Both the position numbers and the translations under genes were made by a program. From assembly GCF_036365525.1 (NCBI RefSeq), contig NC_090404.1, positions 1,798,001 to 1,862,000 on the forward strand: a stretch of DNA of 64,000 bases. The letters are read 5' to 3'. Source of the DNA: Heterodontus francisci. Lineage: Eukaryota. Each line of letters begins with the position of its first letter. Position 1 is the stretch's first letter. Below are positions 12,251 through 53,879 of the stretch, piece by piece. The notes below the pieces were generated by a model that saw nothing but the letters and a program-made list of their open reading frames with translations, had not been told where the DNA came from and made no database searches.

Positions 12251-12314
12251 CTGTAATACAGACAGCAGAGTAAGATGCTTGTGTGTGCCACAGTAGAACA
12301 GGTAGTGTAACCGT

Positions 12315-16560: not shown

Positions 16561-16760
16561 CCCTCGGGACAGGTGAAGAGAAAAGCTTCAAAGTCCCAAT
16601 GGTTGTGAAGGGCTCCTCACTGCACTGTTCGTCTGTTCCTAATGTGATAGTTGGAATCTCAGCGTCAGATAATAAGATGTGGTGATAAATTGAAGGTAAT
16701 CACTGGCTCTTTTTAGGATGTCTGTGTTGTTGTTCATTTGATAGTTAAAAGTCTGGTTAC

Positions 16761-16894
16761 CTTGACAACAGTAACAAAGGTACTGTAGAGGAAACTTAGA
16801 ATAAACAGAATGGCAAAGGCAGCGACTGTTAGCACGTTGTCGTCTCCATCCCAATCTCCCGCTTCTTCCTTCCCTTCCAGGTCTGAAAGGTTAT
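16761..16894 (-). CDS. IgW: TM1 exon (DNLSDLEGKEEAGDWDGDDNVLTVAAFAILFILSFLYSTFVTVVK)
   Basis: ctttcag| phase-1 acceptor, AAG|GTAACC donor; acidic spacer plus antigen-receptor TM (CART) motif F..SF.YST.VT. Confidence 0.95.
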
Positions 16895-18902: not shown

Positions 18903-19285
18903 TTATGAACAGGATTTAAAGCTATCAGTTAGAACAAGTGAGACATTGACCAAGGTGGGTTTGTTATGAGATTTATTGATGCTTCTGAACAAACTGGTTG
19001 TGACTGACTCGTGTCCCACCACACAGGAATAAGTGGTTCCGCTGTTCCACTCCTCTGCAGAGACTGTCAACTGACTGCCTGAGTTCCAGCCACTTCTGCC
19101 ATCCTCGGTCACTGGCTGGTTCACAAACCCTGACTTCAGAAGCGTGTCATTGGCCATCCAGGCCAGGTAGATCTCTGCGGGGGAGAATCCGGTGACCAGA
19201 CAAACCAGGGTTGCCGTCTGATCCGTCTCCATCTCATGTGGTGAAGGGGGGAGGAGGTAGACTTGAGGATGAGTCTGAACATCAA
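18903..19285 (-). CDS. IgW: CH8 exon with secretory tailpiece (...SINKSHNKPTLVNVSLVLTDSFKSCS*)
   Basis: tttccag| acceptor; PQVYLLPPS...TLVCLVTGFSP...YSCVVGHE; IgM-like tailpiece with NVS sequon and penultimate Cys. Confidence 0.95.
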
Positions 19286-19574
19286 CTGGAAACAGAGACA
19301 ACCTGGGTTAGACTGAGTCTTTCACTCATCCTGTATTTACCTAACATGTTCTATTCTTCTACAAACCTAGGAACTTTTGCATCCCCAAGAACCCCTCCTA
19401 TATCAGAAACTAAAAGCATTTCTCTTTTTGTTCATTGTTGGAGTAGAGGGTGCATGGGATGGAATCTTCAATCATGCTGATTTTATAACCAGTGAGAATA
19501 CCTTGTTCAGTTTAAACATTTGGAGCCAGTGAACAACTGGGACTCTGCAGAAAGAGTGTCCGAATGTTTAATGA

Positions 19575-20415: not shown

Positions 20416-20736
20416 CTTGAGCTTTCCTGATTGACCTCTTCTCCGGCGTTGGCAAACTCTTGTCCTCCACCAAACACAAATACTCAACCCCACTCTCCCA
20501 CTCTGCAGCAGGGACCGTCAGTCTGCTGAAGATCACGTCTTTATCTCCAATCCTCTCGGGACCCTGAGTCTTCACTCCATCTTCTCTCTCACTTCCATCC
20601 ACCTGCCAGGTTACCCTGACCCCCTCTAAATCACCATGAAGTACCTCACAAAGAATTGTCGCCATCCTGTTCCTCCAGATCTCTTCAAAAAGAGGCTTGC
20701 TTAAGATGACCGAGATCCCAGTGTCCAAACATTCAT
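20416..20736 (-). CDS. IgW: CH7 exon (DECLDTGISVILSKPLFEEIW...ILCEV...YLCLVEDKSLPTPEKRSIRKAQ)
   Basis: ctcccag| acceptor, G|GTACGT donor, 321 nt; C1-set domain with an extra N-terminal Cys. Confidence 0.92.
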
Positions 20737-21703: not shown

Positions 21704-22021
21704 CTTGGACATTGTTCACCTCCTTGCTGGTTTTGTAGTTGGAGGGTGGATGAGACACTGTGCAGTTGAAGATTGAACCCTTCCTCCACTCCTCTGTACT
21801 CACAGTTAGGTAGTGACTGACACTGAACGTTCCCACCTGCTCCAGAGCAGTGAGTCCAGCGCGGGTGTTGGAGGAGAGCGGAGTACCGTCTTTCTCCCAG
21901 AAGACGTGTATGAGGTCTGGGTAGAATCCAGTGATCACACACTCGAGTGTGACTGTGCTCTTTCTTTTGGTCTCTTGGGCTGGTGGAGGCAGCAGTCTGA
22001 CAATGGGACTTTTTGGCTCGA
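21704..22021 (-). CDS. IgW: CH6 exon (paralogue of CH4)
   Basis: attccag| acceptor, G|GTAGGA donor, 318 nt; VEPKSPIVRLLPPPAQETKRKSTVTLECVITGFYP...FNCTVSHP. Confidence 0.92.
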
Positions 22022-22110
22022 CTGGAATATAGAGGCAAACAAAGGAAGTGTTAAACTTTTTCCTTCAAGTTTAACAAAGTTAGGTGTGTAATTTCTGATC
22101 TCTTGCCCAC

Positions 22111-22413
22111 CTTTTTCACTGCTTATCCGTTTTGACACAGTTGAGGATGAGGAAGCATGTTGGGCAGAGCACTCAAACTCGACCCCGCTGTCCCACTCCT
22201 CCACGCTGGTTTGAAGTTGGCTGATGACCATCTGTAGGGTCCCTTCCTCTGTCGGTCGCTGAGTCTTAACCCCATCACTTCTCTTCTTCCTGCTCACCTC
22301 CCAGGAGATCTGAACATGGCTGGGATCAGAACAGAGCACTGCACACTCCAGGGTAGCAGTCTTGTTGATCCAAACCTCTTCCATCGAAGGATTTTGGATA
22401 AAGACAGACATTT
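22111..22413 (-). CDS. IgW: CH5 exon (paralogue of CH3)
   Basis: ttctcag| acceptor, G|GTGGGC donor, 303 nt; 25 of 101 aa differ from CH3 (hand count). Confidence 0.92.
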
Positions 22414-23269
22414 CTGAGAATGGGAAACGGAAAACTTCAGAAGAACTGACATTGTCTGATGTCAGCAGGCTTCAGAATTTTAGACTTTTCTATTGTTCAA
22501 TTGAACCACACACCATCCTGAGTTGGAAATATTTTGCGGTTCCTTCACTGTCGCTGGATCAAAGTCCTTGAACTTGCTCCCTAACAGCCCTGTGGGTGTA
22601 CCTGCACCAGATGCTCTGCAGCAGTTCAAGAAGGCAGCTCACCTTCACTTTCTCAGGGGCAATTAGGGATGAGCAGCAAATGCTGGCCTTGCCTGTGATG
22701 CCCACATCCCATGAAATGAATAAAAAAGATGATGTGATGGAAGGTGAAGACAGAATCCTTTATAATAGATAATATCTTGGGCTGATATTGGATCAAGCGA
22801 TACTGCAGCTAAATTTGTAGCAAATTGAACATTAGAAAATCCCAGGGTTATTTAAAAGTTATCTTGAATTTCTTAGCTTTTATGTTTTGATTGAGAAAAC
22901 ATAATCAGAGCATCTGGAACCCACCAGATCTGTTTTGAATCAGTTTGTCACAACTGTGACCAATAGATCCTCACTGGGGACTGCAATTGAATTGTGGGGC
23001 TGAGTGACATTTAGATGTGGTGATGTTAATAAAATGTAATGTCCAGTTTGTGAAATGGACTGATAGAGAGAGAGAGAGAGAGAGACAGATGCTCAGCAAA
23101 AGAAACAGCTGAATAAATGCTTGTTTACTTGCAGCCCCCGTGTGGGGCCGTGGATCGATGGCCTCACCTCTCCCTATCTCTGTTACCTTCAACAGCCTGT
23201 CTCATTTTCCTCTTCACTTCCCCTCTCAACTTATTTGGCCTGGTTCTCACTTGAAGATTTCACCTGATG

Positions 23270-25469: not shown

Positions 25470-28400
25470 TGTCTGAAGTCAATGATTTGTAAACCTAGGT
25501 TTCATATACACTCTCTATTGTCAATGATTTGTAAACCTAGGTTTCATATCCACTGCATATTGTCAATGATTTGTAAACCTAGGTTTCATATCCACTCTCT
25601 ATTGTCAATGATTTGTAAACCTCGGTTTCATATACACTCTCTATTGTCAATGATTTGTAAACCTAGGTTTCGTATACACTCTCTATTGTCAATGATTTGT
25701 AAACCTAGGTTTCATATCCACTCTCTATTGTCAATGATTTGTAAACCTAGGTTTCATATCCACTGCATATTGTCAATGATTTGTAAACCTAGGTTTCATA
25801 TACACTCTCTATTGTCAATGATTTGTAAACCTAGGTTTCATATCCACTGTATATTGTCAATGATTTGTAAACCTAGGTTTCATATACACTCTCTATTGTC
25901 AATGATTTGTAAACCTAGGTTTCATATCCACTGTATATTGTCAATGATTTGTAAACCTAGGTTTCATATACACTCTCTATTGTCAATGATTTGTAAACCT
26001 AGGTTTCATATACACTCTCTATTGTCAATGATTTGTAAACCTAGGTTTCATATACACTCTCTATTGTCAATGATTTGTAAACCTAGGTTTCATATACACT
26101 CTCTATTGTCAATGATTTGTAAACCTAGGTTTCATATACACTCTCTATTGTCAATGATTTGTAAACCTAGGTTTCATATACACTCTCTATTGTCAATGAT
26201 TTGTAAACCTAGGTTTCATATCCACTGTATATTGTCAATGATTTGTAAACCTAGGTTTCATATACACTCTCTATTGTCAATGATTTGTAAACCTAGGTTT
26301 CATATACACTCTCTATTGTCAATGATTTGTAAACCTAGGTTTCATATACACTCTCTATTGTCAATGATTTGTAAACCTAGGTTTCATATCCACTGTATAT
26401 TGTCAATGATTTGTAAACCTAGGTTTCATATACACTCTCTATTGTCAATGATTTGTAAACCTAGGTTTCATATCCACTGTAAATTGTCAATGATTTGTAA
26501 ACCTAGGTTTCATATCCACTGTATATTGTCAATGATTTGTTAACCTAGGTTTCATATACACTCTCTATTGTCAATGATTTGTAAACCTAGGTTTCATATA
26601 CACTCTCTATTGTCAATGATTTGTAAACCTAGGTTTCATATCCACTCTCTATTGTCAATGATTTGTAAACCTAGGTTTCATATACACTCTCTATTGTCAA
26701 TGATTTGTAAACCTAGGTTTCATATCCACTCTCTATTGTCAATGATTTGTAAACCTAGGTTTCATATCCACTGTAAATTGTCAATGATTTGTAAACCTAG
26801 GTTTCATATCCACTGTATATTGTCAATGATTTGTAAACCTAGGTTTCATATCCACTGTATATTGTCAATGATTTGTAAACCTAGGTTTCATATCCACTGT
26901 ATATTGTCAATGATTTGTAAACCTAGTTTCATATCCACTGTATATTGTCAATGATTTGTAAACCTAGGTTTCATATCCACTGTATATTGTCAATGATTTG
27001 TAAACCTAGGTTTCATATACACTCTCTATTGTCAATGATTTGTAAACCTAGGTTTCATATCCACTGTATATTGTCAATGATTTGTAAACCTAGGTTTCAT
27101 ATACACTCTCTATTGTCAATGATTTGTAAACCTAGGTTTCATATCCACTGTATATTGTCAATGATTTGTAAACCTAGGTTTCATATCCACTGTATATTGT
27201 CAATGATTTGTAAACCTAGGTTTCATATACACTGTATATTGTCAATGATTTGTAAACCTAGGTTTCATATCCACTGTATATTGTCAATGATTTGTAAACC
27301 TAGGTTTCATATCCACTGTATATTGTCAATGATTTGTAAACCTAGGTTTCATATACACTCTCTATTGTCAATGATTTGTAAACCTAGGTTTCATATACAC
27401 TCTCTATTGTCAATGATTTGTAAACCCAGGTTTCATATACACTCTCTATTGTCAATGATTTGTAAACCTAGGTTTCATATACACTCTCTATTGTCAATGA
27501 TTTGTAAACCTAGGTTTCATATCCACTGTATATTGTCAATGATTTGTAAACCTAGGTTTCATATACACTCTCTATTGTCAATGATTTGTAAACCTAGGTT
27601 TCATATACACTCTCTATTGTCAATGATTTGTAAACCTAGGTTTCATATACACTCTCTATTGTCAATGATTTGTAAACCTAGGTTTCATATCCACTGTATA
27701 TTGTCAATGATTTGTAAACCTAGGTTTCATATACACTCTCTATTGTCAATGATTTGTAAACCTAGGTTTCATATCCACTGTAAATTGTCAATGATTTGTA
27801 AACCTAGGTTTCATATCCACTGTATATTGTCAATGATTTGTTAACCTAGGTTTCATATACACTCTCTATTGTCAATGATTTGTAAACCTAGGTTTCATAT
27901 ACACTCTCTATTGTCAATGATTTGTAAACCTAGGTTTCATATCCACTCTCTATTGTCAATGATTTGTAAACCTAGGTTTCATATACACTCTCTATTGTCA
28001 ATGATTTGGAAACCTAGGTTTCATATCCACTGTAAATTGTCAATGATTTGTAAACCTAGGTTTCATATCCACTGTATATTGTCAATGATTTGTTAACCTA
28101 GGTTTCATATACACTGTATATTGTCAATGATTTGTAAACCTAGGTTTCATATCCACTGTATATTGTCAATGATTTGTAAACCTAGGTTTCATATCCACTG
28201 TATATTGTCAATGATTTGTAAACCTAGTTTCATATCCACTGTATATTGTCAATGATTTGTAAACCTAGGTTTCATATCCACTGTATATTGTCAATGATTT
28301 GTAAACCTAGGTTTCATATACACTCTCTATTGTCAATGATTTGTAAACCTAGGTTTCATATCCACTGTATATTGTCAATGATTTGTAAACCTAGGTTTCA

Positions 28401-30670
28401 TATACACTCTCTATTGTCAATGATTTGTAAACCTAGGTTTCATATCCACTGTATATTGTCAATGATTTGTAAACCTAGGTTTCATATCCACTGTATATTG
28501 TCAATGATTTGTAAACCTAGGTTTCATATACACTGTATATTGTCAATGATTTGTAAACCTAGGTTTCATATCCACTGTATATTGTCAATGATTTGTAAAC
28601 CTAGGTTTCATATCCACTGTATATTGTCAATGATTTGTAAACCTAGGTTTCATATACACTCTCTATTGTCAATGATTTGTAAACCTAGGTTTCATATCCA
28701 CTGTATATTGTCAATGATTTGTAAACCTAGGTTTCATATACACTCTCTATTGTCAATGATTTGTAAACCTAGGTTTCATATACACTCTCTATTGTCAATG
28801 ATTTGTAAACCTAGGTTTCATATACACTCTCTATTGTCAATGATTTGTAAACCTAGGTTTCATATCCACTGTATATTGTCAATGATTTGTAAACCTAGGT
28901 TTCATATACACTCTCTATTGTCAATGATTTGTAAACCTAGGTTTCATATCCACTCTCTATTGTCAATGATTTGTAAACCTAGGTTTCATATACACTCTCT
29001 ATTGTCAATGATTTGTAAACCTAGGTTTCATATACACTCTCTATTGTCAATGATTTGTAAACCTAGGTTTCATATCCACTGTAAATTGTCAATGATTTGT
29101 AAACCTAGGTTTCATATCCACTGTATATTGTCAATGATTTGTAAACCTAGGTTTCATGTACACTGTATATTGTCAATGATTTGTAAACCTAGGTTTCATA
29201 TCCACTGTATATTGTCAATGATTTGTAAACCTAGGTTTCATATCCACTGTATATTGTCAATGATTTGTAAACCTAGGTTTCATATCCACTGTATATTGTC
29301 AATGATTTGTAAACCTAGTTTCATATCCACTGTATATTGTCAATGATTTGTAAACCTAGGTTTCATATCCACTGTATATTGTCAATGATTTGTAAACCTA
29401 GGTTTCATATCCACTGTATATTGTCAATGATTTGTAAAGCTAGGTTTCATATACACTCTCTATTGTCAATGATTTGTAAACCTAGGTTTCATATCCACTG
29501 TATATTGTCAATGATTTGTAAACCTAGGTTTCATATACACTCTCTATTGTCAATGATTTGTAAACCTAGGTTTCATATCCACTGTATATTGTCAATGATT
29601 TGTAAACCTAGGTTTCATATCCACTGTATATTGTCAATGATTTGTAAACCTAGGTTTCATATACACTGTATATTGTCAATGATTTGTAAACCTAGGTTTC
29701 ATATCCACTGTATATTGTCAATGATTTGTAAACCTAGGTTTCATATCCACTGTATATTGTCAATGATTTGTAAACCTAGGTTTCATATACACTGTATATT
29801 GTCAATGATTTGTAAACCTAGGTTTCATATACACTCTCTATTGTCAATGATTTGTAAACCTAGGTTTCATATCCACTGTATATTGTCAATGATTTGTAAA
29901 CCTAGGTTTCATATCCACTGTATATTGTCAATGATTTGTAAACCTAGGTTTCATATCCACTTGATATTGTCAATGATTTGTAAACCTAGGTTTCATATAC
30001 ACTCTCTATTGTCAATGATTTGTAAACCTAGGTTTCATATCCACTGTATATTGTCAATGATTTGTAAACCTAGGTTTCATATCCACTGTATATTGTCAAT
30101 GATTTGTAAACCTAGGTTTCATATACACTCTCTATTGTCAATGATTTGTAAACCTAGGTTTCATATACACTCTCTATTGTCAATGATTGGTAAACCTAGG
30201 TTTCATATCCACTGTATATTGTCAATGATTTGTAAACCTAGGTTTCATATACACTGCATATTGTCAATGATTTGTAAACCTAGGTTTCATATACACTGTA
30301 TATTGTCAATGATTTGTAAACCTAGGTTTCATATCCACTGTATATTGTCAATGATTTGTAAACCTAGGTTTCATATACATCGGATATAGTCAAGAATGGT
30401 AAACCTGGATTTAATATACACCATAAGTAGTCACTAATTTGTAAATCTAGGTTTAATATACACTGTGTGTGGTCAATGATTTGTAAACCTTGGTTTAGTA
30501 TACACTGTCTATATTCAGTTATCTGTAAACCAAGGTTTAGTATACACAATGTCTAGTCAATGATTTGTAAACCTCGGTTTAATGTACACCATATATGGTA
30601 AATAATTTTAAAAACCTAGGTTTGATATACACTATGTAGGTTTCATATACACTGTGTATAATCAATAATT
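25470..30670. repeat. 42-bp minisatellite (gtcaatgatttgtaaacctaggtttcatat(a/c)cact(ctc/gta)tatt)n, about 120 units, in the Sec2-CH5 intron
   Basis: Direct periodicity; palindrome AAACCTAGGTTT in each unit; variants recur at 1301 bp. Confidence 0.97.
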
Positions 30671-31312
30671 TAGAATCACAGAATAATACAGTACAGAAGA
30701 GGCTCTTCGGCTCATCGAGTCTGCACCGATGCATTAATCCCATTTGCCAGCACTTGGCCCATAGCCTTGAATGTTATGACGTGCCAAGTGCTCATCCAGG
30801 TACTTTTTAAAGGATGTGAGGCAACCTGCCTCTACCACCCTCCCAGGCAGGGCATTCCAGACCGTCACCACCCTCTGGGTAAAAATGTTTTTCCTCAAAT
30901 CCCCCTTAAACCTCCTGCCCCTCACCTTAACCTTGTGTCCCCTCGTAACTGACCCTTTAACTAAGGGGAACAGCTGCTCCCTATCCACCCTGTCCATGCC
31001 CCTCATAATCTTGTACACCTCGATCAGGTCACCCCTCAGTCTTCTCTGCTCCAGCGAAAACAACCCAAGCCTATCCAACCTCTCTTCGTAGCTTAAATGT
31101 TCCATCCCAGGCACCATCCTGGTGAATCGCATCTGCACCCCCTCCAATGCAATCACATCCTTCCTATAATGTGGCGACAAGAATTGCACACAGTACTCCA
31201 GCTGTGGCCTTACCAAAGTTCTGTACAACTCCAACATGACCTCCCCGCTTTTGTAATCTATGCCTCGATTGATAAAGGCAAAGGCAAGTGTCCCATATCC
31301 ATTTTTCACCAT
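30671..31312 (-). mobile_element. CR1 3' fragment
   Basis: LVRPQLEYCVQF...RRLRGDLIEVYK...WNALP. Confidence 0.88.
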
Positions 31313-32440: not shown

Positions 32441-32954
32441 ACATCAGTACCTAGGTTTGGGGAGTGAAGGGAACTCTTTCTTTTTCTGCTGATCAGAGTT
32501 TTTATTTAAAACCTACCAGGTCGTTCATGGCACCAGTTAAATCTTTGTGTCCTGAATCACCAATTTGCCTCAGGACCACCATCATTGAGGGTTAATCCTC
32601 CCTGTTACTGGATCAAGGTGATATTTCTCATCACCCTGCCTCCTCCCTCACCACGTCCCAACCCCCCCACGGCCTCGCTGGGTAACAAAGAGGCTTCCAA
32701 TTTTTGTGAACTAGGGTCAGTCCTGAGAGGCAATGGTCAAGTGGTGTGGCCGAGACCCTATCCAAACTGACCCACCACAGGTCACAAAAAGAAAATGACC
32801 ATTTATACAAGGAGTGGGTTGGGTGAGGAACCCAAGCTCGGGCTGTAACTTCTCACACTGTTTACACTTTCACCCAGACAGACACCATGGGCTGGATTTA
32901 AACCTACCAAATGGTTTGTAATAAAATTCAACGGCCAATTCCATTCACAACCAA

Positions 32955-33127
32955 TCACTTTATTTTGCACGCTTGTTGGTGACAGTTATATTGGAGCTGA
33001 CCTCCATTTTCAAGGGTCACATTAAGGTCAGTCTGGTAAACAAGCTTTGGCATACACCCAGAACAAGAGGAAGGAGGACAAGTGCAGGGAGTGTTTCCAC
33101 CCGGAACAGGAAGATTTACATTTCCAC
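32955..33127 (-). CDS. IgW: Secretory exon Sec2, 57-aa Cys-rich tail (GGNVNLPVPGGNTPCTCPPSSCSGCMPKLVYQTDLNVTLENGGQLQYNCHQQACKIK*)
   Basis: attccag| acceptor in phase 1 with CH4; 5 nt differences from Sec1 over 173 nt; 6 Cys; AATAAA in the last codons and at 32501-32506. Confidence 0.87.
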
Positions 33128-34093
33128 CTGGAATTGGAAGAGTTGCAGATTTAAGTGTTATACAATTTCACCTCCCCTCCCCCATGCTAGGAAATTGGGA
33201 GCTCCACACGGCCCTGAACTCTGCTCCATCCTGTATTTTTAGGATCCTCATGTTTCTCGATCATGAGGACCATGACAAGCTGCTTCACCTTGACCAGAAC
33301 AGTAGGATCAGAGGACATGACCTGTGCTTGAAGGGAGTAGGATGGCAATTCAAAACTAATGCAGGAAACAAATATTTCAACCTCTGGAGTTTTCACTTTT
33401 ACTGATACTAGTTGTTTATTTCCAGTTCTTACTTAAAAATGGAATTCAAATTCTCAAACTGCCTTGGTGAGATCTGATCTTATTTCTCCTGATTATTAAC
33501 TAGAAGGACTCTCTCCACTATGTCAGAAGGCCATGTGTTCAAATCCCACACCAGAGACATGAGCATATAATCCAGGCCACCAATCTTGGTGTCAGGACTA
33601 AGGGAGCACTGCACTGTTGGACGTGCCATCTTTCAGATGTGACAATAAACCGAGGCAACGTCTACCCTCTCAGGTGGAACAAAAAGATCCTGCAGTCAGT
33701 ATTTCGAAGAAGAGAAGGGGAAATCTTCTCTGTGGCTGTCTGACGTTTATCCCTCAACCAGCAACATGAGAACAGATAATCTGGTCAGCACCACATTGCT
33801 GTTTGTGGGACCTTGCTGTCTGCAAATTAATTGATGTGTTTTTACATTACAACAGTGACTACACTTCAAAACAAAAATACTTTGTTGGCTGCAAAGCACT
33901 TTGGGATGTCCTGAGGTTGTGAAGGGAGCTACATGAATGCAATTGTTTCTTTCTTTACTTGCCTTGGCCTCTGGATTATTGTCCACATACATAACCACTA
34001 CATTACCATACCTATGTCATTAGTGTTGAACTTGTCTGACTCTTGTCATGTTTTTAAGTTATGTTAATATTGGATTCAGGCCCAGGATCCTAC

Positions 34094-34405
34094 CTTCAAT
34101 GTTCTTCACCTCCTTGCTGGTTTTGTAGTTGGAAGGTGGATGAGACACTGTACAGGTGAAGCTTGAACCTTTCGTCCACTCCTCTGTACTCACAGTCAGG
34201 TAGTGAGTGACACTGAATGTTCCCTCCTGTTCCAGAGCGGTGAGTCCAGCGCGGGTGTTGGATGTGATCGGAGCACCGTCTTTCTCCCAGGAGACGTGTA
34301 TGAGGTCCGGGTAGAATCCAGTGATCACACACTCAAGGGTGGCCGTGCTCTCATTCTTGGTCTCTGGTGGAGGCAGTAATCTGACCATGGGACTTTTTGG
34401 CTTGG
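34094..34405 (-). CDS. IgW: CH4 exon
   Basis: gttccag| acceptor, G|GTAGGA donor, 312 nt; ATLECVITGFYP...W...FTCTVSHP; 89-nt intron from CH3. Confidence 0.93.
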
Positions 34406-34494
34406 CTGGAACAGACAGGTAAAGAAAGAAGGTGTTAAACTCCTTCCCTCAAGATTAACAAAGCCAAGCATTTAATTTCTGATCTCTTGCCCAC

Positions 34495-34797
34495 CTTTTA
34501 CATTCTTTACCCGTTTTGACACAGGTGAGGACGAGGAAGCACTTTGGGCAGAGCACACAAATTCCACTCCGCTGCCCCACTCCTCCGCACTGGTTCGGAG
34601 TTGGCTGATGATGATGTATTGAGTCCCTTCCTCTGTTGGGCGCTGAGTCGTAACCCCTTCACTTCTCTTCTTCCTATTCACATTCCAGGAGATTTGGACC
34701 TTGCTCGGATCAGAACAGACCACTGTACACACCAGGGTAGCAGTCTTGTTGATCCAAACCTCTTCAATAGAAGGCTTTTGAATAAAGAGAGACATTT
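34495..34797 (-). CDS. IgW: CH3 exon
   Basis: ttcctag| acceptor, G|GTGGGC donor, 303 nt; EMSLFIQKPSIEEVW...LVCTVVC...W...FVCSAQ. Confidence 0.92.
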
Positions 34798-36989
34798 CTA
34801 GGAATAGGAAAGGGTACACATCAGAAGAATTGACATTGTCTGGTGTCACCAAGCTTCAGACTTTTACAGGAAACCTTCCTGATCATAAGCGATGGAAGGT
34901 GAGGACAGAAGTGACTTTAAACTGAACCTATAATATCCTGAACTGATAATGGATCAAGCCACTTGCCATCTAAATTTGTCACAAATTGAACATTAGAAAA
35001 TCACAGGGTTATTTAAACAATGTCTTTCAATTCTTGATTTTCAAGTTTTGACCGAGAAAACATAATCAGAGCATCAAGAATCCGACGGATCTTTTTTGAA
35101 CCCGTTTGTCCATTTTTAAAATTCATTCATGAGATGTGGGCGTCGCTGGCCAGGCCAGCATTTATTGCCCATCCCTAATTGCCCTAACTGAGTGGCTTGC
35201 TAGGCCATTTCAGAGGGCATGTAAGGGTCAACCACATTGCTGTGGGTCTGGAATTACATGTAGGCCAGACCAGGTAAATACAGCAGATTTCCTTCCCTAA
35301 AGGACATTAGTGAACCAGATGGGTTTTTACAACAATCGACAATGGTTTCATGGCCATCATTCGACTAGCTTTTTAATTCCAGATTTATTAATTGAATTCA
35401 AATTCCACCTTCTGCTGTGGTGGGATTTGAACCCATGTCCCCAGAGCAATACCCTGGGTCTCTGGGTTACTAAGCCAGTGACAATGCCACTACGCCACCA
35501 CCTCCTGTCCTAAATATGAGCAACAGGTTCACAGTGAGGACTAGAATGGAGTTGTTGGGCTGAGCAACATTTAGATGTGACAATGTCAATAAAATGCAAT
35601 CTTCAGTTTGTGAAATGGAGTGAGAGAGAGATCCAGACTGCTTAACAAAAGAAACAATTCAATAAATGCTTTTCCACTCACAGCCCATGTGTGGGGCTGT
35701 GGATCGATTGATAACTGAATCAATGAGGAGTCCTTTCCTTTTAGACAGGTCAGTTGTCATTCAGTTCGTAGCACTTTTACCCCACAGGTCGAATGTTCTG
35801 GGTTCAAGTCCTGCTTGAGCACAAAAATCAAAGCTGACACTCCTGTGTGGTAGTGAGGGAGTGCTGCACTGTCAGAGGTGCTGCCTTTTGGATAAGGCAT
35901 GAAACGAAGGCCACATCCTCCTCCTCATGTGGATATAAAAGGTCTCAGGCACTATTTTGAAGAGCAGGGGAGTTACTCCCGCTGTTCTGGCCAATATTTA
36001 TCCCTCATTCAACGTTTCAAAAACAGAATACGTGGTCATTATCACATTGCTTTTTGTTGGGGCTTGCTGTGCATAAACTGTCTCCCACATTTCCTACCTT
36101 ACAATAGTGACTACAATTCAAAAGTACTTCATTGGCTGTAAAGATCTTTGGGATGTCCTGTGTTTGTGAAAGGTGCTATATAAATGCAAGTGTTTTCTTC
36201 CTTTCTCTATTTGGATTGTCTCAATGTTAAAATTCTTATCCTAATGTTCACATCTCTCCATGGCCTCACCTCTCTCTATTTCTGTAATCTTCTCCAGCCC
36301 AACAACCCTCCAAAAACTCTGCCCAACTCTGGCCTCTTGGACATCCTCTGCTCCCTTTGCTCCAGTATTGGTGGCCATGCCTTCAGCCGTCCAGTTCCTA
36401 ATCTCTGGACCTCACTCTCTAAACCTCAGTGACCTGTCACCTCTCTCTCCTCCTTTCGGACAGTCCTTAAAATCCCTCGCTTTTGTTCGCATGTCCAAAT
36501 ATCTCCTTTTTTGACCCAGTGTCAATTTTTCCCTGGTTTAACTCCTGTGAACCACCATGGGACATTTTACGACATTAAAGGCGCTATATAAATGAAAGTT
36601 GTTGATGATGATTCCCTGTCAAGGAAGATGGTTAGTTTGCAGTGGCAGAACAACCCTTGAATCAGAAGAAGTAACAGAAGTCCACCTCTTTCTGCAGGTT
36701 AGGGATCGTTTCTACACAACATGTACTTCACCCCTCCCAGTTTCATTTTCATTGGACTGGGAAGATAATGATTTATTGAATTCTTCACATTTTCTTCTTT
36801 GCACTAGTCTCCTAAAGGACCATCGCCACTTGAAATATCCCACAGCTCACTGTGTGTTCTGTATAATATCAACACACATACACATATTCACTGTGAAAAT
36901 CATAACTAAGCCGTCTGTTTTGATCCACATTGATTGTTTTCTCTCAATATAATGTTGAGTTAATACTTGTGGGGAGACAGGATTTGTAT

Positions 36990-37645
36990 ATTTATTTGCC
37001 ATTTCAACACTCCCCCCTGCTCTCATGCTCACATCTCTGTCCTGGGATTGCTGCAGTGTTCCAGTGAACATCAACGCAAGCTCGAGGAACAGCATCTCAT
37101 TTACCGATTAGGTACACTACAGCCTGCTGGACTGAACATTGAGTTCAATAATTTCAGAGCATGACGGGCCCCCCATTTTATTTTTAGTTATTTTTTTTCT
37201 TTTTCCTTTTTTTACATACTTTTTTGTGTTTATTTAGTTCTATTTCATCTTAGTTTGTTCAGTTTGCTTACCTACTGTTTTTTTTACATGTTTGTACTTG
37301 AGGCTGTTCAATTTTCAGTCCGTTAACACCCTATCTGTACTAATGCTTTGTCTTTCAACACACCATTAACATATTGTTTGCCTTTGCTCCACGACCTTCT
37401 GGTCAGCTATTCTGTGACCTTGTCCTGTCTACACCTTCTACTTTGTTATCTCTTGCCCCACCCCCGCTTTACTTGCTTATAACCTTTTACATTTCTAATA
37501 TTTGCCAGTTCTGAAGAAGGGTCACTAACCTGAAACGTTAACTCTGCTTCTCTCTCCACAGATGCTGCCAGACCTGCTGGGTATTTCCAGCATTTCTTGT
37601 TTTTATTTCAGATTTCCAGCATCTGCAGTATTTTGCTTTTATTTT
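36990..37645 (+). mobile_element. Penelope-like element 3' fragment
   Basis: HFN...RKLEEQHLIYRLGTLQPAGLN (GIY-YIG C-terminus) followed by a terminal repeat with a hammerhead-like core. Confidence 0.8.
37507..37543 (+). ncRNA. Minimal type-I hammerhead ribozyme-like motif (Penelope)
   Basis: agtt-CUGAAGA-agg..cct-GAAA-CG-UU-aact: 4-bp helix I, imperfect helix II, palindromic ACGU helix III. Confidence 0.55.
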
Positions 37646-38220
37646 CTATATTTATGTCTGGATAAACCTTTAATGAGCACCAGATATCAAGTCCTCTGGT
37701 TGCAGTTTCAGCTGATGTTCAGCACTCATTGTCTGTCTGACAAAACCGTGTCTTTTATTAACTTCAGATGTTCTGTTTCTCTCTCCCAACTTTTCACAAG
37801 ATGTTGAGCAATTTCCTTTCAGACTGGGATTGATAATTACCTCAGTGACCAAGTTTTAACATTTAACAGTCTCTGGTGCCATGTGGTCTCCCATCATAAA
37901 ATCTCACAGGGTCAGAAGAATTCCCCTTATTATTGTAAATTATTGTATATTATTATAGGCTTCCAATTCTTGTCAACTAGAGTCAGTCCTGAGAGGCAAT
38001 GGTCAAGTGGTGTGGCCGAGACCCTATCCAAACTGACCCACCACAGGTCACAAAAAGAAAATGGCCATTTATACAAGGAGTGGGTTGGGTGAGGAACCCA
38101 AGCTCGGGCTGTAACTTCTCACACTGTTTACACTTTCACCCAGACAGACACCATGGGCTGGATTTAAACCTGCCAAATGGTTTGTAATAAAATTCAACGG
38201 CCAATTCCATTCACAACCAA

Positions 38221-38393
38221 TCACTTTATTTTGCACGCTTGTTGGTGACAGTTATATTGGAGCTGGCCTCCATTTTCAAGGGTCACATTAAGGTCAGTCT
38301 GGTAAACAAGCTTCGGCATACACCCAGAACAAGAGCAAGGAGGACAAGTGCAGGGAGTGTTTCCACCCGGAACAGGAAGATTTACGGTTCCAC
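38221..38393 (-). CDS. IgW: Secretory exon Sec1, 57-aa Cys-rich tail (GGTVNLPVPGGNTPCTCPPCSCSGCMPKLVYQTDLNVTLENGGQLQYNCHQQACKIK*)
   Basis: atttcag| acceptor in phase 1 with CH2; 7 Cys, NVT sequon, TGA at 38221-38223; AATAAA overlaps the last codons, another at 37754-37759. A Cys-rich tail is the known hallmark of IgW-short. Confidence 0.88.
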
Positions 38394-38779
38394 CTGAAAT
38401 TGGAAGAGTTGCAGATTTAAGTGTTATACAATTTCACCTCCCCTCCTCCGTGCTGGGAAATTGGGAGCTCCACACGGCTGCTGAACTCTGCTCCATCCTG
38501 TATTTTTAGGATCATGTAGACGATGAGAAGCTGGTTCACCTTGTCCAGAAGGGCCAGAGGACACTTCATGTACTTGAAGGGGGAGTGGGATCAATGCAAA
38601 ACTAATGGAGGGAGCCAATAGTTCAGCGAGTGATCAGTCTATGGAACAGGCTCCCTCTGGAGATGGTGGAAGCAGATCATGGAAATTCATTCATTTGCAA
38701 AATTGGAAAGATTTCTTTCATAAAACAACATTTGGGAGGCAGTAGAAAAGGAACAGGTCGGAGGTGATTTGAACTGTGG

Positions 38780-38885
38780 ATGGTATCAGATGGGACGGTA
38801 TCACATGGGACGGTATCAGATGGGACGGGATCTGATGGGACGGGATCTGATGGGACGGGATCTGATGGGACGGAATCTGATGGAC
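38780..38885. repeat. 15-bp tandem repeat (gatgggacgggatct)n
   Basis: About 7 units in the CH2-Sec1 intron. Confidence 0.85.
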
Positions 38886-39179
38886 CATTTCATACCTTGT
38901 CCTCATTTTCCTTTCTACTGAAGTCATAGAGAGTAAAATTGGATGAAGGTGTAAACAAGCAGCCGACCCGATTCCCCGCACGGAGCTTAGTTAAAATTAC
39001 TCTCTTTGAGTGGTGGTTCAATATCAAAACACAAAATACAAAACATCTTTCCTCTCCCAACAACGTCGATATTAGTGTCAGTGGTTCATGAATTGAGGGG
39101 GTGAGCGTCAGCGCATTAAGTTAGTACACGTCTGAATTACTGACAGTATATTCTTTTTACACCCTCAGACACAACTTAC

Positions 39180-39479
39180 CCTTTTGGTACCTCATGCTGA
39201 TCCTGTCATTGAATCTGGAACCTGCGTGAGACACTTCACAGGTGTAGACATCCCCTGTGGTCCATTCCACCACAGGCACTGTCAGGTAAGAGACCGTTTC
39301 AAAGGTAGAGTCATTTCTCTGTTTGGAATGGAGAACAACACCTGATTGATCCACTCTGTCTTTCTTCCAGGAAACCTGTACACTGTCAGGAGAGTATCCG
39401 GATATCACACAGCCCAGGACGGCAGTAGTTTGATTGTAGACAACCTCCGGGGATGGAACAAGGGGAATGAGGTTTGGAG
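39180..39479 (-). CDS. IgW: CH2 exon ([31 protein letters not shown]...[22 protein letters not shown])
   Basis: tctcaag| acceptor, G|GTAAGT donor, 300 nt; C1-set motifs. Confidence 0.92.
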
Positions 39480-40389
39480 CTTGAGATATAAGACATTGCA
39501 ATATTTCAGATTAGAGGATTGTTTTGGTCATAATAAAGATGTATTCCATTCCCCCAACATGTGGACCAAGTGTCACGATGCTAAACCGCTCCATATAGCT
39601 TGCTGATTGGCCGGTGAGCATGTCATCAAGGTGAGAACCATTGAGACATGCTGGAGAGAGCTGGGATGGGGAGAGCTGACAGTATATCTACGGTCTGCCT
39701 TGCAGAGCATCCCATTCTACAGGGATGTAGAACAGAGGTGGGTAAATGGGATTGAGATCAGCCTTAATCTAATTGAATAGCAGAAGAGGCTGGAGGAGGT
39801 GACTGGCCTGCACTTGTTCCTGTGGACAGATACCGGGATCGGGAGTACAACTGCCAGCTGTTTATCCCTCAGATTATCTTTCATAACATCCAGCAGTTTC
39901 GAACAACCAGTCTGAAAATCTATCCCAATAACATCCTCTTCTAACTGGGTTCCCTATTGCCCTCTCCTGAAATATTTGGTTAGTTTTCAGGTCTGGGTTC
40001 TGACAAATGGCCGAACCTTTTCACATTTCAGATGGTGACTGACTTGCTGCATATGTTCAGCTTTTTCCTGTTGGTACCTGGACATCCCACAGTGCCCATA
40101 ACCAGTCTGAGATCGGAGCCAACAGGGCAGCACTTTGTAAAGTTGTTGTTGCACCTTTGGGAGATTTCAGATGGAAATTACAATTCTCCATAATAGTGGA
40201 GTTGAGCCTATACCTACAACATTCCTCTCACTATATTGTAATGGAGGCACAAGCTCATTTAAATGGGGTAGAAATTGGTCTCAGGTGGGGGCGCTATGCA
40301 GATGACAGTGAATCAACAGCCTGCTTTACCATCCACCCAATTTTCATTTCCATTGACCTTAGTGATGGCAGGATGAATGAAAGAGGTAA

Positions 40390-41135
40390 AATAACATAAA
40401 TGGTCCAGCTTTACAGAGGGTGCAGGAACTTAGAGACCTGGGGATTTAAGTACACACACCTTGGAAGGTGACAGGACAAGTTGATGAGGCTGTTTTAAAA
40501 AAAAAACATATGGAATGCGAGGCTGTCTAAATAGAGGCATGGGGCACAAAAGCAAGGAAGTTATTCCTAAAGCTTTGTAAATCACTGGGATGGCGTTAAT
40601 TGGAGTATTGTGTCCTATTCTGGGCACCACACCTTAGGAAGAATGTCAAGGCCTTGGAGAGGATTCAGAGGCCATTTACTGGATGGTTCCAGTGATGAGA
40701 GACTTTAGTTAGATGGAGAGACTGCAGAAGCTGAGATTGTTCTCCTTAGGTAGAGCAGAGAAGGTTAAGGGGAGATTTAATGGAGGTGTTTAAAATGGTG
40801 AGTAGATGGAGAGAAACTGTTTCTACTAACAGCAGGGTTGGTAGCCCAGAGGACACAGATTAAAGATAATTGGCAAAAAAGCCAGAGAGGGCATTATGAG
40901 GATTTTTTTTAATGAACTCAGCAAATGATCTGGAATGCACTGCCTGAAGGAGGATGGTGGAAACAGATTTAATAGTAATTTTCAAAAGAAATTTGGATAA
41001 ATACTTGAATAGAAAAAATTTGCTGAGCTATGAGGAAAGAACAAGGGCAGTAGGGCAGTGGGACTAATTTAGTACCTCTTTCAAAGAACTGGAACAGACA
41101 TGACGGGCCAAATGGCCTCTTTCTGTCCTGTATGA
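40390..41135 (+). mobile_element. Old CR1 3' fragment
   Basis: Decayed CR1 ORF2 C-terminus and tail. Confidence 0.7.
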
Positions 41136-41171
41136 TTATCTGAACCACTGACTCAATGGGAGGAGTGCTCT

Positions 41172-41336
41172 AAAATTGGACAGAGGTGAGGATACAAAAT
41201 AGTCAGTATAACATTACATACACTACACCTGATATTCAATTTCCTTGACTTCCGCAGAATTGAATATCGGGTGTGTTGTATCACAGGCAGAAAATGTGAG
41301 TCTGACATTATTGTATCCCCGCCCTTGTCCAATTTT
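41172..41336. repeat. Imperfect 35-bp inverted repeat, MITE-like
   Basis: 41172-41206 (aaaattggacagaggtgaggatacaaaatagtcag) pairs with 41302-41336. Confidence 0.55.
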
Positions 41337-41529
41337 GTGCGATTTCTCATCGTCCTTTATTTTATTACCAGCATCACCGCCAGCGTACAGGGATAGAATA
41401 TACGGGCACAAGAATTTGTGCGGGTCTATTGTGTAGCAACCTCCTACATTGGTTGGTGAAGGTTCCCTTGTCTAATTTCATCCCCCAACACCAATGCAGT
41501 TTTAAATGGTAAAAATGTCTCATACTAAC

Positions 41530-41844
41530 ATTTTGGTTTTTTGATCTGGCGTTCCACCATTTCGTCTGGCTTGTACCCTGCCTTGCAGTGGTAGACCTTA
41601 TTGGAATTCCAGTCTGACGCAGAGACTTTGAGCACACTGCTCATCGTGTATTTCGTATTTTTCCCCAAGACTGCCGGATACTTCTTGATTCCAGTGGAAA
41701 TGACCCCATTGTCACGGGACCATGTCTGACTGATGCTCTCGGGCTGAAAGTCCTTGACCAGGCAGAGGAGGCTTATCTCATCTTGGTTGGAGCTTGTGCC
41801 ACAGGAGGGGCTGGAGATGTAGACCGATGGTACAGACTGGGTAA
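41530..41844 (-). CDS. IgW: CH1 exon (VTQSVPSVYISSPSCGTSSNQDEISLLCLVKDFQPESISQTW...DWNSNKVYHCKAGYKPDEMVERQIKKPK)
   Basis: tttcag| acceptor, T|GTTAGT donor, 315 nt open. C1-set Cys/Trp/Cys plus an N-terminal Cys at the light-chain-linking position. Confidence 0.93.
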
Positions 41845-43010
41845 CTGAAACATAAATAGATGGACACAGATAAGTTCAGTAAACAAATACATTACAGTCA
41901 GAATCAGCTGGAGAGATTTTGTTACATATATATACCAGCCATTTCCAAAAATAATTACACCAGATTGGTGGGAAATGGAGAACATTGTAAAAGGTCAGAA
42001 TTGGTAATTTTAACCTAGATCGGCAGCCGGTTATTCCGATGGAGCGGGTGGAACGTCAGTTTTAAACCCATCCCTGTATTACTCTCCACCGGCTTCAATA
42101 GACTACGATCAGGCAGGGTGTGAATCCAATGTTGTGCCCAATCCAGTCAGTTCCCCAACAGTGGGTTAGGTTGAAAGGCTCAGTTGAAAACCAAGAACAT
42201 GGAAGGACCCTGCAGAGCAGGAAAAGTGGCTGGAGAAACAACAATGGCAGTTAAAATTGGAGAAGCTGAGGGAACCAATACATGAGAGAAATATCATTAG
42301 CAATGACAAACAGACTTCAGATATAACACAGTGATTATACGGTGAGCAGACTTAAAACTAGAAAAAATAAAGTGGGAACCTGGAATTTGCAGTCAAAGGA
42401 GTAGCAGAATGATCAAATCTTGATTTTACACACAGGTTTGTTCAAGAAGTAGGGGATATATTGTTGAAATCTTGTTTTCAGGGAGAAGACAGAAAGCTTG
42501 CAAATCACAATGGACTTGATTTAACAAAATGGTTAACATTTACAGCTGTTTGGTTAAACATCCTTTTCATAGTTAACAATTTTGATAGTTTTACAAGAAT
42601 TTTGCACTATTGGGTTAATGCACGTGATTCACAGGGATAGAAAGGAGGGCAGAAGAGAGAATTTGTTTCTCTTTCTCAATCCTTCTAGATTACTCAGGTT
42701 AAAACTAACTGGTAATTTACTGGTGTGGCACAATCTAATTCTGGCTGTTGGTAATACAGCTTTTGTTAAACAGCCACACAAACCAATCCGTGCCATAGGT
42801 AAAGGGTCACTGAACAGTAACCGTCAGATATGATGCCAGATCGACAATCTGGAAACACACAGTCTCCACTGATGGGTTCTCGAGTTTGAAACGGCTCATG
42901 AAAGGAATATAAACCTATCAGTCTTAGGAACCTAACTATTTTGCATAGACGTGAATGGCTAAGGAACATTGAAATTACTGGACCCAAAAAAGACCAAGGT
43001 CCATCTAGAT

Positions 43011-43973
43011 CATGGTTGTCCAACATACGGCCCACGGGCCAGAATCCGGCCCTCCAAAGGTTTCCATTCGGCCCGCGGGTGTAAAATGCTGAAATGTCAG
43101 ACACCTCAGTGGGCAGTTACAGGTTTGTCAAAACCACGTTCCCACACAACATGGCTACACCCAGCAGAGAGGCAACGTTCACAGCCTGTCTCTATTATCC
43201 ACATTTATGGTGAGTGCACAGACGGGGAGTGAAGAGCCACGACCGGAGAGCGGGAAGTAGAGAATGGGGAGCAGAGAGTGGAGAGCAGAGAGAGAGAGAG
43301 AGAGAGACAGCGGGGGTAAGGAGAGACAGCGGAGGAGGGTGGGAGAGAGTGAGAGAGAATAAAAAGAGATCAGGATCACTCCTGACAGAGGGATCATAGG
43401 AAATAGGAGCAGGAGTAGGGTATTTGGCCCGTCGAGCCTGCTCCAACATTCAAACAGATCATGGCTGATCATCGACCTCCGTACTATTTTCCCCATTATC
43501 CCCTTATCACTTGATGTCATTAATATCCAGATATCTATCCATTTCTATCTTGAACATACTCAATGATTGAGTTTGCACAGTCCTCTTGGGGAGAGAATTC
43601 CACAGATTCACTACTCTCTGAGTAAAGAAATTAATCCTCATCTCAGTCTTAAATGGCCTGCTCCTTATTCTGAGTGGCCTGTCCCTTATTTGATCTGAAA
43701 TACTCTGCATCGCTACATCAAGTATGCGGGCAGACATTGAGTACTAGGCAAGCACAAACAATGCCAAGTATGTCACTAAGTTGGGTCTTCAACATCGTGA
43801 CAAGAAAGTAAGTCAATAAATTAGACTTCTCATTTAAAGATACTTCACAAAAATGCATGTTGGTTGTTGTTTTAATTAATTGCAAGATAATTTTAAATGC
43901 CTGAAATTTTTTCTCTGGTCCTCCACGAAGGATTGTAATGTGACCTCCCCACATGAGAAGGTTGGACACCCTG
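43011..43973. mobile_element. Non-autonomous hAT (Charlie-type) DNA transposon with a nested CR1 fragment (about 43394-43680)
   Basis: TIRs catggttgtccaac / gttggacaccctg; perfect 8-bp TSD atctagat (43003-43010, 43974-43981); cggccc-gggcc subterminal motif. It splits a repeat also present at about 18310-18560. Confidence 0.85.
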
Positions 43974-44279
43974 ATCTAGATGGCCTTTTACCATCCTGGT
44001 AGATACGATACGAGAATGGAGTTATGGACTAATCATAGCAATCAATCTCTATTGATTAGTCGATAGCAGTCCCAGGCATGTGGTGAGGAGCCCCCAGTGG
44101 TGGAGAGCTTCAGAAACCATAGATCCAAATTCCTCCGTTCCTCCCAAGCATGCTACACTCACCACATGTTATGCCTGAAATTACTCATATACTGTCTTCC
44201 AAAATGTTATTTTATGGAGAAAGCTACCCCCTCAAATTCTCCCCAGTTCTCCCCAGTGACCTGGTCAATATTTATTTAA

Positions 44280-51437: not shown

Positions 51438-51485
51438 CTGAAGTCACGGTCAGAAAGGTTCCGCTGCCCCAGTAGTCAAGATAGT
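51438..51485 (-). CDS. IgW: JH segment (YLDYWGSGTFLTVTS)
   Basis: WGxG motif; phase-1 donor CAG|GTAAGA; preceded by an RSS. Confidence 0.95.
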
Positions 51486-51524
51486 CACTGTGCTTTGTTT
51501 CCTCATTCACCCAATGCAGTAACT
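51486..51524 (-). promoter_or_regulatory. J 5' RSS, 23-bp spacer, degenerate nonamer
   Basis: Plus strand cactgtg (51486-51492) + 23 nt + gcagtaact (51516-51524). Confidence 0.8.
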
Positions 51525-52254: not shown

Positions 52255-52335
52255 GGTTTTTGAATGGAGGGAGCCCCCATCTCTCACACTGTGCCACCCA
52301 GTATAGACACTGTGATAGACACCTGTACATTAACC
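52255..52335 (-). other. DH segment D1b (coding 52294-52307, identical to D1a) with 5' 12-RSS and 3' 23-RSS
   Basis: Same heptamers, nonamers, 23-spacer and coding sequence as D1a at a 701-bp offset; the 12-spacer differs at 3 positions. Confidence 0.9.
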
Positions 52336-52955
52336 TCCTCCCCTTTCACTGTCACTGAGCCCCGTCACTTCACATTGAAACCACACTGACACTGCTACAA
52401 GTGAGCAATCCTGCTCTCTGATTCACACTCCAGGTGGTTTGGAAAGCTGTGTTTCAGTGGTTCTGTTACTGAGCAGTGATTCAATAATCCAGGAAACCCT
52501 GAGTTCAATCCCTCTTTGGGTGTTTGGGAATTGCACTTTAAAAATCTGGGAAAATAAAGCTGGGATGAGTAAAAGTGACCACGAAGTTATTAGGTTGTCA
52601 GAAAAACCCAACTGGTTCACTAATGTCCATGATAGAAGGACATCCGGTATGGCCTCTCGGTGACTCCAGTCTCACACCCAATGTGGTTGACTCCTGAAGG
52701 GGTCTAATGAGGCCCTCAGTTATCGCTGTCTTCTCAGGGTAACTAGGAATGGGGAACAAATCCAGTCTTGTCAGTGACATCTTCATCCCAGAGCTGTTAC
52801 TCGGCACTGTTTCCCCTTTTTCAACTAATATCTTCAAAGAAAGTTGTTCACACACCCGGATTATTGAATCAGGATCTGATTTATATCCACTGGACATGAG
52901 GTAAAAGCCGGTGATATCATCTGAAGAGTCCAGTTCAAATAGCTTTCATGTGGCA

Positions 52956-53036
52956 GGTTTTTGAATGGAGGGAGCCCCCATCTCTCACACTGTGCCACCC
53001 AGTATAGACACTGTGATACACACCCGGACATTAACC
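52956..53036 (-). other. DH segment D1a (coding 52995-53008, TCTATACTGGGTGG) with 5' 12-RSS and 3' 23-RSS
   Basis: Plus strand: ggtttttga-23-cactgtg [ccacccagtataga] cactgtg-12-acattaacc. Open in all three frames (SILG/LYWV/YTGW). Confidence 0.9.
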
Positions 53037-53379: not shown

Positions 53380-53418
53380 AGTTTTTGTACCAGTCCAGCC
53401 CCGGTTCCTCTCACTGTG
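53380..53418 (-). promoter_or_regulatory. V 3' recombination signal sequence, 23-bp spacer
   Basis: CACAGTG (53412-53418) + 23 nt + ACAAAAACT (53380-53388). Confidence 0.96.
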
Positions 53419-53713
53419 CTCGCACAGTAATACATGGCGGTGTCCTCAACTCTCAGATTATTCAGTTGTAGATAGGCGGTGTTGCCGCTCTTGGAAACTT
53501 CGAATCGGCCTTGAACTCCAGATGCGTAATACTTGCTACCAGAAGAAGCTATAACCGCGACCCACTGCAGCCCTTTCCCGGGGACCTGTTTCACCCAGTG
53601 CATGCTGTTGCTGCTGAGGCTGAACCCACTCACTCCACAGGACAATTTGTGAGACTCCCCGGGCTTTTTCACAGCTGACTCGGGCTGGGTCAACACGATA
53701 TTGGACCGGACAC
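53419..53713 (-). CDS. IgW: Germline VH segment ([26 protein letters not shown]...[12 protein letters not shown]...EDTAMYYCA)
   Basis: Acceptor ttaacag|GT; canonical Cys, Trp and YYC; open frame; immediately followed by an RSS. Confidence 0.96.
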
Positions 53714-53833
53714 CTGTTAATAAAAGAGAAAAAGAAGAGTTCACTTTAATAAACCCGTTGTATAAACAGAGGGTTAAAGAGTCTGCGAATAAGCAGCCGC
53801 ACTGTGAGGGAATAAAGCTGCGGGACCACTCAC

Positions 53834-53879
53834 CGGTTAGACAGGCCAGAAGGACACAGAGATAAGGAGCAATCCCCAT
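53834..53879 (-). CDS. IgW: IgW leader exon ([16 protein letters not shown])
   Basis: ATG at 53879, hydrophobic signal peptide, phase-1 donor G|GTGAGT; 120-nt intron to the V exon. Confidence 0.93.

Follow-up and report, generated by a model that had tools for sequence, protein, structure and literature searches.

Two cysteine-rich secretory exons in a horn shark IgW cluster, probably kept alike by repeated gene conversion within an old tandem duplication

We analyzed a 64,000-nt stretch of the horn shark (Heterodontus francisci) genome (NC_090404.1, positions 1,798,001 to 1,862,000; hereafter the window, numbered from its first letter). Its minus strand carries a complete IgW minicluster with a variable (V), two diversity (D) and a joining (J) segment, eight constant domains (CH1-CH8) with a tailpiece, and a transmembrane (TM) exon. 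Two terminal secretory exons encoding Cys-rich tails are interspersed in the same orientation: Sec1 (38221..38393), with seven Cys, between CH2 and CH3, and Sec2 (32955..33127), with six Cys, between CH4 and CH5. Sec1 and Sec2 are 97% identical within an old duplication of the Sec-CH3-CH4 cassette, and it is likely that repeated gene conversion between the copies has kept them alike. We observed the cassette duplication, a sharply bounded tract of identity, a mosaic of sites among four copies, a chimeric cluster and splicing of CH2 to Sec.

A self-alignment shows that Sec-CH3-CH4 was duplicated in tandem, with the junction at 33380..33393 (unstranded): the homology to 20986 extends as far as 33393, and that to 38625 starts at 33379. 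The introns of the two cassettes differ at 298 of 1,420 sites over six alignable blocks, with Kimura two-parameter (K2P) distances of 0.19-0.28, and the synonymous divergence (dS) is 0.27 between CH3 and CH5 and 0.28 between CH4 and CH6. At the protein level, CH3 and CH5 are identical in 76/102 residues (74.5%), and CH4 and CH6 in 86/103 (83.5%) by global alignment or 79.6% by local alignment, close to the values of about 75% and 81% in the initial annotation of this DNA. Within this duplication, the acceptor region, Sec exon and downstream DNA form a tract (copy 1, 37958..38513; copy 2, 32692..33245; both minus strand) whose copies differ at only 15 of 554 columns, with 2 gaps; the identity is 97.3% and the K2P distance 0.028. 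The differences are distributed over the acceptor region (5/118), the coding exon (5/173) and the downstream DNA (5/263), and the identity along the tract is 93-100% per 50 nt. The five coding differences, at Sec1 positions 38387, 38386, 38336, 38314 and 38266, replace Thr (codon at 38387-38386) by Asn (33121-33120 in Sec2) and Cys (38336) by Ser (33070 in Sec2), and two more are synonymous. We thus recovered both the near-identity first reported for 32691-33245 and 37958-38513 and the five substitutions in 173 coding nt, with the same two replacements and seven versus six Cys.

The tract stands apart from the rest of the duplication at both synonymous and non-coding sites. Non-coding differences amount to 10/381 in the tract versus 298/1,420 in the introns (Fisher p 4e-22), and synonymous differences to 3/38 in Sec (dS 0.083) versus 32/138 in the CH exons (p 0.04). 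When the 408 differences were permuted over the 2,674 aligned columns, the longest identical run (107 nt) was matched in none of 20,000 permutations and the observed best segment was reached in none of 4,000. Among the remaining columns, the CH3 and CH4 exons together form the best segment (112 differences/823; 2/4,000 permutations), as expected because they are coding DNA. On the 5′ side, the old flank of Sec1 at the start of cassette 1 (38514..38625, minus strand) is still homologous to that of Sec2 (33246..33379, minus strand; separated from the tract by a 16-nt indel at its edge), with 81.8% identity over ~110 columns and a local score of 93 that none of 300 shuffles reached. The 3′ flanks adjoining the tract are non-homologous (score 18, reached by 100 of 300 shuffles), and homology resumes 136 nt on at the Sec1 side and ~7.3 kb on at the Sec2 side. 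The notion that the tract lies between diverged but homologous flanks therefore holds upstream but not downstream. Gene conversion is expected to leave such a stretch of high identity, sharply delimited within an older duplication and homogeneous at synonymous and non-coding sites alike.

The contigs of run X5 are RNA-like and spliced, as exon bins greatly exceed intron bins and both CH2-Sec and CH2-CH3 junctions are present. CH2 (39180..39483, minus strand) has a phase-1 donor at 39180, CH4 (34094..34405, minus strand) has a phase-1 donor compatible with the Sec2 acceptor, and both Sec acceptors are in phase with their upstream donors. The horn shark gene thus has a terminal exon after CH2 that encodes a long Cys-rich tail, as is characteristic of IgW. 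Joining of CH4 to Sec2 would give an isoform with four constant domains (4C), as suggested by the open frame, the splice phase, the run X5 contigs with the Ser state and the nurse shark counterpart.

Each Sec exon contains an AATAAA overlapping its last codons (Sec1, 38225..38230; Sec2, 32959..32964; both minus strand). A contig of run X9, which comes from a related organism and whose kind is not on record, has a depth of 141 and ends at 32944, 15 nt past the Sec2 AATAAA, beyond which the depth falls to 4.2. Runs X9 and X10 contain only 0.11-0.12 of the query words, and the read support is limited to the Sec2 side; by analogy with its twin, the Sec1 hexamer is likely the main poly(A) signal. 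One run X5 contig (depth 120) spans the DNA downstream of AATAAA, and hence a longer RNA or pre-mRNA exists too. Given the AATAAA in the last codons and the end of the X9 contig, most of the downstream 263 nt likely lies past the main cleavage site and outside the main mRNA, and would then not represent the 260 nt of 3′ untranslated region (UTR) initially assigned to it. Selection is accordingly a weaker explanation of its identity. The likely poly(A) signal is embedded in Lys-Ile-Lys codons, the Ile-Lys at the tail end is invariant in 6/6 aligned tails, and the signal may constrain the protein end of the tail.

Searches at the DNA and protein levels each detected four Sec copies in the genome, so that there are at least four, all on one contig (C34); at least two CH1 copies were found when 150 of 419 candidates were scored. 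Cluster C (C34 ~1980968-2026843, minus strand; loci L012-L017) is a 99% identical segmental duplicate of the window cluster without the part corresponding to window positions 36874-52777, which holds J, CH1, CH2 and Sec1; V is retained, and the cluster is likely non-functional. Its Sec2 has the Asn and Ser states. Cluster B (C34 ~1443778-1482880, plus strand; loci L021 and L005-L008) is inverted relative to the window cluster and contains V, J, CH1, CH2, one Sec, the 3′ half of CH6, CH7, CH8 and TM, with CH3-CH5 missing. It is 86-91% identical to the window cluster in its 5′ part and 98-99% in its 3′ part. The cluster B Sec is chimeric, with the 5′ flank of Sec1, Sec1 states through the coding exon and the 3′ flank of Sec2, and thus has the structure expected after a crossover between Sec1 and Sec2. 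CH5 and half of CH6 were lost in a second deletion, and cluster B could still make a two-domain secreted chain.

Among the four copies there are 13 substitution sites at which two copies differ from the other two. Nine of them unite Sec1 with cluster B versus Sec2 with cluster C, and four unite Sec1 with Sec2 versus clusters B and C; such a mosaic of incompatible site patterns is a signature of gene conversion. The four Sec1-Sec2 sites are contiguous within 41 nt (p 0.014, or 0.055 with adjacent pairs counted once). In this patch (32731..32771, minus strand), Sec2 equals Sec1, unlike its 99% identical cluster C twin and cluster B, and the patch is likely a recent conversion tract, younger than the duplication that gave rise to the window cluster and cluster C. 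In a three-way comparison, sites private to the window make up 5/263 of the Sec2 3′ tract versus 13/6,186 of three flanking blocks (p 0.0006), and four of these five sites equal Sec1. At 9 of the 17 sites listed, the related organism matches none of the four copies; its contigs are not assignable to Sec1 or Sec2.

These data can be accommodated by a simple cycle. Sec1 and Sec2, as direct repeats 5,266 nt apart, would recombine non-allelically; non-crossover events would homogenize them between the 16-nt indel and the non-homologous 3′ flank, while crossovers would remove CH3-CH4, of which cluster B seems to be an example. High identity would favor further exchange, so that the alike state could persist without selection for sameness, and purifying selection on the Sec exon may help. 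Each Sec exon would end the transcript at the poly(A) signal in its last codons, yielding secreted chains of two domains through Sec1 and of four domains through Sec2. Neutral, self-sustaining conversion explains the data as well as selection for one effector tail.

The one-Cys difference between the exons is real, because cluster C, the run X5 contigs and Swiss-Prot records show it too. The two H. francisci entries already in the database, P83742 with seven Cys in the tail and P83743 with six, have the same CH2 and the same Cys-rich tail (98% identical) as the window cluster, the tail being joined to CH2 in both; they have no genomic context, so exon positions and the conversion tract are invisible in them. 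Sec1 is 98% identical to P83743, which combines a window-type CH2 with a tail carrying the Thr of Sec1 and the Ser of Sec2, a combination present in none of the four copies described here. The run X5 contigs show both states at 33048 and 33070, with the Cys state accounting for 2529.8 of 3054.8 of the summed contig depth and the Ser state for the remainder. As P83743 has the Ser form on a CH2-joined tail, the replacement is no fixed feature distinguishing chains of two constant domains (2C) from 4C chains, unless this record is a polymerase chain reaction (PCR) chimera. It is likely a tolerated variant, probably minor, which postdates the most recent conversion of the coding sequence and is being shuffled between copies. 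The Cys counts are 4, 5, 5, 5, 6, 6, 6, 7 and 7 in nine full-length tails of four species (two truncated nurse shark records were excluded), and Cys16, Cys48 and Cys53 are invariant in a six-row tail alignment while Cys19 varies. The CPPC motif occupies tail residues 16-19, and the tail does not begin with it as had been described.

AlphaFold2 folding of the tail alone placed three strands in residues 32-55, with a predicted local distance difference test (pLDDT) score of 72-81 for residues 31-56 in the best of five models. Residues 1-25 scored below 50, and this unstructured first half carries the variable Cys. These predictions suggest that the tail likely comprises a disordered Cys/Pro hinge, which would link two heavy chains, and behind it a small beta-sheet that holds one internal disulfide. 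The idea that an odd or even number of Cys alters inter-chain bonding or polymerization is disfavored by the Ser form on the CH2-joined P83743, by the range of four to seven Cys across tails and by the predicted disorder at the variable site. The parity argument further assumes pairing within a chain, whereas an odd count poses no difficulty when the Cys of two heavy chains pair with each other in a symmetric dimer; the hinge of human IgG3 has such an odd count.

The IgG hinge, with the motif CPPC or, in IgG4, CPSC, resembles the tail as a flexible segment with a short Cys-Pro motif next to C domains, and by analogy the tail could join two heavy chains. The horn shark motif differs in its location, a C-terminal tail in which as many as five Cys lie close by, and no homology was found in Pfam or the PDB: a Pfam search matched none of six members, and a PDB sequence search gave one match only, with an E value of 1.2. 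The ESM Atlas search with the tail gave no usable match, and VIA-align of the tail versus 48,161 chains gave a best Z of 2.2, which does not establish the fold as new or different. A search of 1.84 billion representatives returned three matches, two IgW tails and the repeat protein P0043, the latter of which was taken as a chance match. Secretory tailpieces of the IgM/IgA type have ~18 residues with a penultimate Cys and are encoded at the end of the last C exon. The Sec tails do not conform to this type, having 57 residues, an exon of their own and the last Cys fourth from the end, whereas the CH8 end of the same gene does.

A similar arrangement exists in nurse shark, whose IgW has six to eight C exons and is secreted in 2-, 4-, 6- or 8-domain forms by alternative splicing, according to passages of PMC4279169, PMC5192425, PMC6795676 and bioRxiv 10.1101/2022.06.22.497154; the short form bears a long Cys-rich tail in the account excerpted from PMC4279169. 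The two species are alike in C exon number and in the Cys-rich tail, and probably in having several secreted isoforms. The nurse shark proteins AGY29600 and AGY29602 have four C domains followed by the tail at the end, and the 2C protein P83984 shares 149/150 residues of CH1-CH2 and 38/40 residues of the tail with the 4C protein AGY29602. Nurse shark tails have 4-5 Cys versus 6-7 in horn shark, and the tails of the two species are ~53-55% alike. In nurse shark, CH3 and CH5 are identical in 92-94/102 residues and CH4 and CH6 in 95-100/102, whereas in horn shark the Sec tract alone is near-identical; the peculiarity of the horn shark is that the last rounds of conversion touched this tract alone.

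In a tree of eight rows, a clade of 4C-type (second-position) tails across horn and nurse shark was rejected by the approximately unbiased test (p-AU 1e-42) and tails grouped by species, a grouping that does not in itself establish a common age of the cassette duplication. Position-based clades of CH3/CH5 and CH4/CH6 were likewise rejected (p-AU 2e-7 and 4e-6; 0.037 and 0.018 without nurse shark) in trees of 14/41 and 14/40 rows, comprising two-cassette galeomorph models and two outgroups. These tests reject orthology by position across galeomorph sharks, and one ancient cassette duplication is therefore not claimed here. Comparison of these sequences is compatible with concerted evolution and would fit more than one history of duplication. 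The CH3-CH4 unit occurs in one to six copies in 20 IgW proteins or gene models and the copies mostly cluster by lineage, so that elasmobranch IgW in general undergoes duplication, loss and homogenization of this cassette. Three to six CH3-CH4 units, mostly homogenized within the lineage, are present in the models from sawfish, bamboo shark and rays (P0003-P0005, P0017 and P0018). In white and basking shark models (P0014 and P0015), grouping by position is seen for CH4/CH6 and not for CH3/CH5, a hint that single domains were converted in this lineage.

The abstract of a 2013 study by Zhang, du Pasquier and Hsu reportedly mentions "two interspersed secretory exons" in nurse shark IgW, and the work of Rumfelt et al. 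in 2004 is another primary study on its secreted isoforms. No description of conversion between IgW Sec exons was found in the literature searched, which did not include these 2004 and 2013 primary papers. A related case is shark UrIg2, in which a two-exon Ig-family unit was duplicated in tandem and homogenized within species by gene conversion, as reported in sections of PMC12227049. UrIg2 differs, on the same partial account, in being a non-rearranging gene in which conversion spans Ig C domains and not a terminal secretory exon with its downstream DNA.

Several observations weigh against the account given above or parts of it. The direction of the four-site patch is ambiguous without an outgroup, as a B-to-C exchange fits as well as transfer from Sec1 to Sec2. 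The P83743 record might stem from a PCR chimera or from another allele in which CH2 was spliced directly to Sec2, and none of the contig joints listed is a CH4-to-Sec2 junction. That the tails group by species does not prove one old duplication common to these sharks, because grouping by position across species is likewise absent for CH3/CH5 and CH4/CH6. Regarding the tail, only one of five models reached a mean pLDDT of 59 (the others 43-47), the tail scored below 50 when folded with CH2, and all disulfide assignments are inferred.

Three other explanations of the likeness were considered. A single recent replacement, through one long conversion or a double crossover and perhaps with another cluster as donor, would suit the fairly even divergence along the tract and the long blocks that the window cluster shares or exchanges with clusters B and C, as in the 98-99% and 86-91% identical parts of cluster B. 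It is improbable, since the two incompatible site patterns, one of which is later than the cluster C split, require at least two events; P83743 suggests a third, and nurse shark shows the same pairing with a different sequence. Collapse or mis-polishing of the assembly, as a source of either the likeness or the Cys-to-Ser difference, is very improbable: there is structure in the pattern of the 15 differing sites, the Sec2 states recur in cluster C, older Swiss-Prot records hold both the Cys and Ser forms, and run X5 has both states in the depths given above. This possibility was raised by the core of run X1, a single collapsed 531-nt contig indicating that short reads cannot separate the copies; run X1 may be the assembly's own sample.

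It is also quite improbable that selection keeps the tails the same, or one Cys apart so that 2C and 4C IgW bond or polymerize differently. The ratio of nonsynonymous to synonymous divergence (dN/dS) between the Sec exons is ~0.19 (dN 0.016, dS 0.083; only five changes), the Ser state is common to Sec2 and cluster C and present in the RNA-like X5 contigs, and a passage of PMC8692893 mentions IgW pentamer and dimer in bamboo shark plasma as "data not shown". However, the occurrence of the Ser form on a CH2-joined tail, the variable number of tail Cys and the lack of invariance at Cys19, in contrast to Cys16, Cys48 and Cys53, all speak against a selected Cys difference, and selection on protein cannot account for 97% identity over 381 non-coding columns. 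Strong purifying selection on the UTR was considered separately and rejected, as the tract extends ~250 nt past the proximal AATAAA and the tails are ~45% diverged between species. Taken together, the tract statistics, the non-coding homogeneity, the four-copy mosaic and the chimeric cluster B copy bear out the initial proposal of concerted evolution of the Sec exons, with repeated gene conversion as its probable cause.

The remaining exons of the window cluster, all on the minus strand, were mapped by six-frame translation and tblastn, in which all eight C domains matched the H. francisci gene model XP_067870240; this model passes over both Sec exons. Taken one by one, the domains are 55-88% identical to those of named IgW chains from Carcharhinus, Triakis, Squalus and Ginglymostoma. 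The leader and V exon, intron included (53418..53879), were located by tblastn of gene model P0007 and a heptamer scan, with a recombination signal sequence heptamer at 53412. Heptamer pairs delimit the two D segments at ~52988-53015 and 52287-52314 (52287..53015 together), which lie in regions that are 94.7% alike (52087-52458 and 52786-53159). They are followed by J (51439..51492), CH1 (41531..41848; 100% identical to P0007), CH3 (34495..34797), CH5 (22112..22414), which is the paralogue of CH3, CH6 (21705..22022), which is that of CH4, CH7 (20417..20735), CH8 including the conventional short secretory tailpiece (18906..19286) and the TM exon (16758..16877). This content agrees with the definition of an IgW minicluster as V, D, J, six to eight C exons and TM, as worded in a part of PMC5192425. 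The window also has two long minisatellite arrays, 12309-16550 (~41-nt units) and 25463-30671 (~42-nt units), the latter of which sits between Sec2 and CH5 and is absent at the corresponding place in cluster B. Upstream of V there is a 1.76-kb inverted repeat of 96% identity (55774-57534 and 59389-61149) with transposon-like open frames, which is found in cluster C too.

A bolder interpretation is that the Sec exon is a self-contained effector module, selected to be identical on 2- and 4-domain IgW for co-assembly or for one receptor, and that its repeats also act as recombination sites changing the domain number of a cluster (from eight to six in the case of cluster B), and perhaps do so in B cells too when sharks switch isotype; we regard this combination as unlikely. 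The gain is local, because the databases already contain the tail sequences and the mechanism is a textbook one: the horn shark adds a further case of a familiar process, acting on an exon that was known before. Nevertheless, recurrent conversion would explain why heavy chains of different length bear one tail in a poorly understood antibody class, and the natural Cys/Ser variants, together with the two-part model of the tail, provide material for testing the role of the IgW tail. Crossover between the Sec repeats would offer a concrete route from 8-domain to 6-domain IgW clusters.

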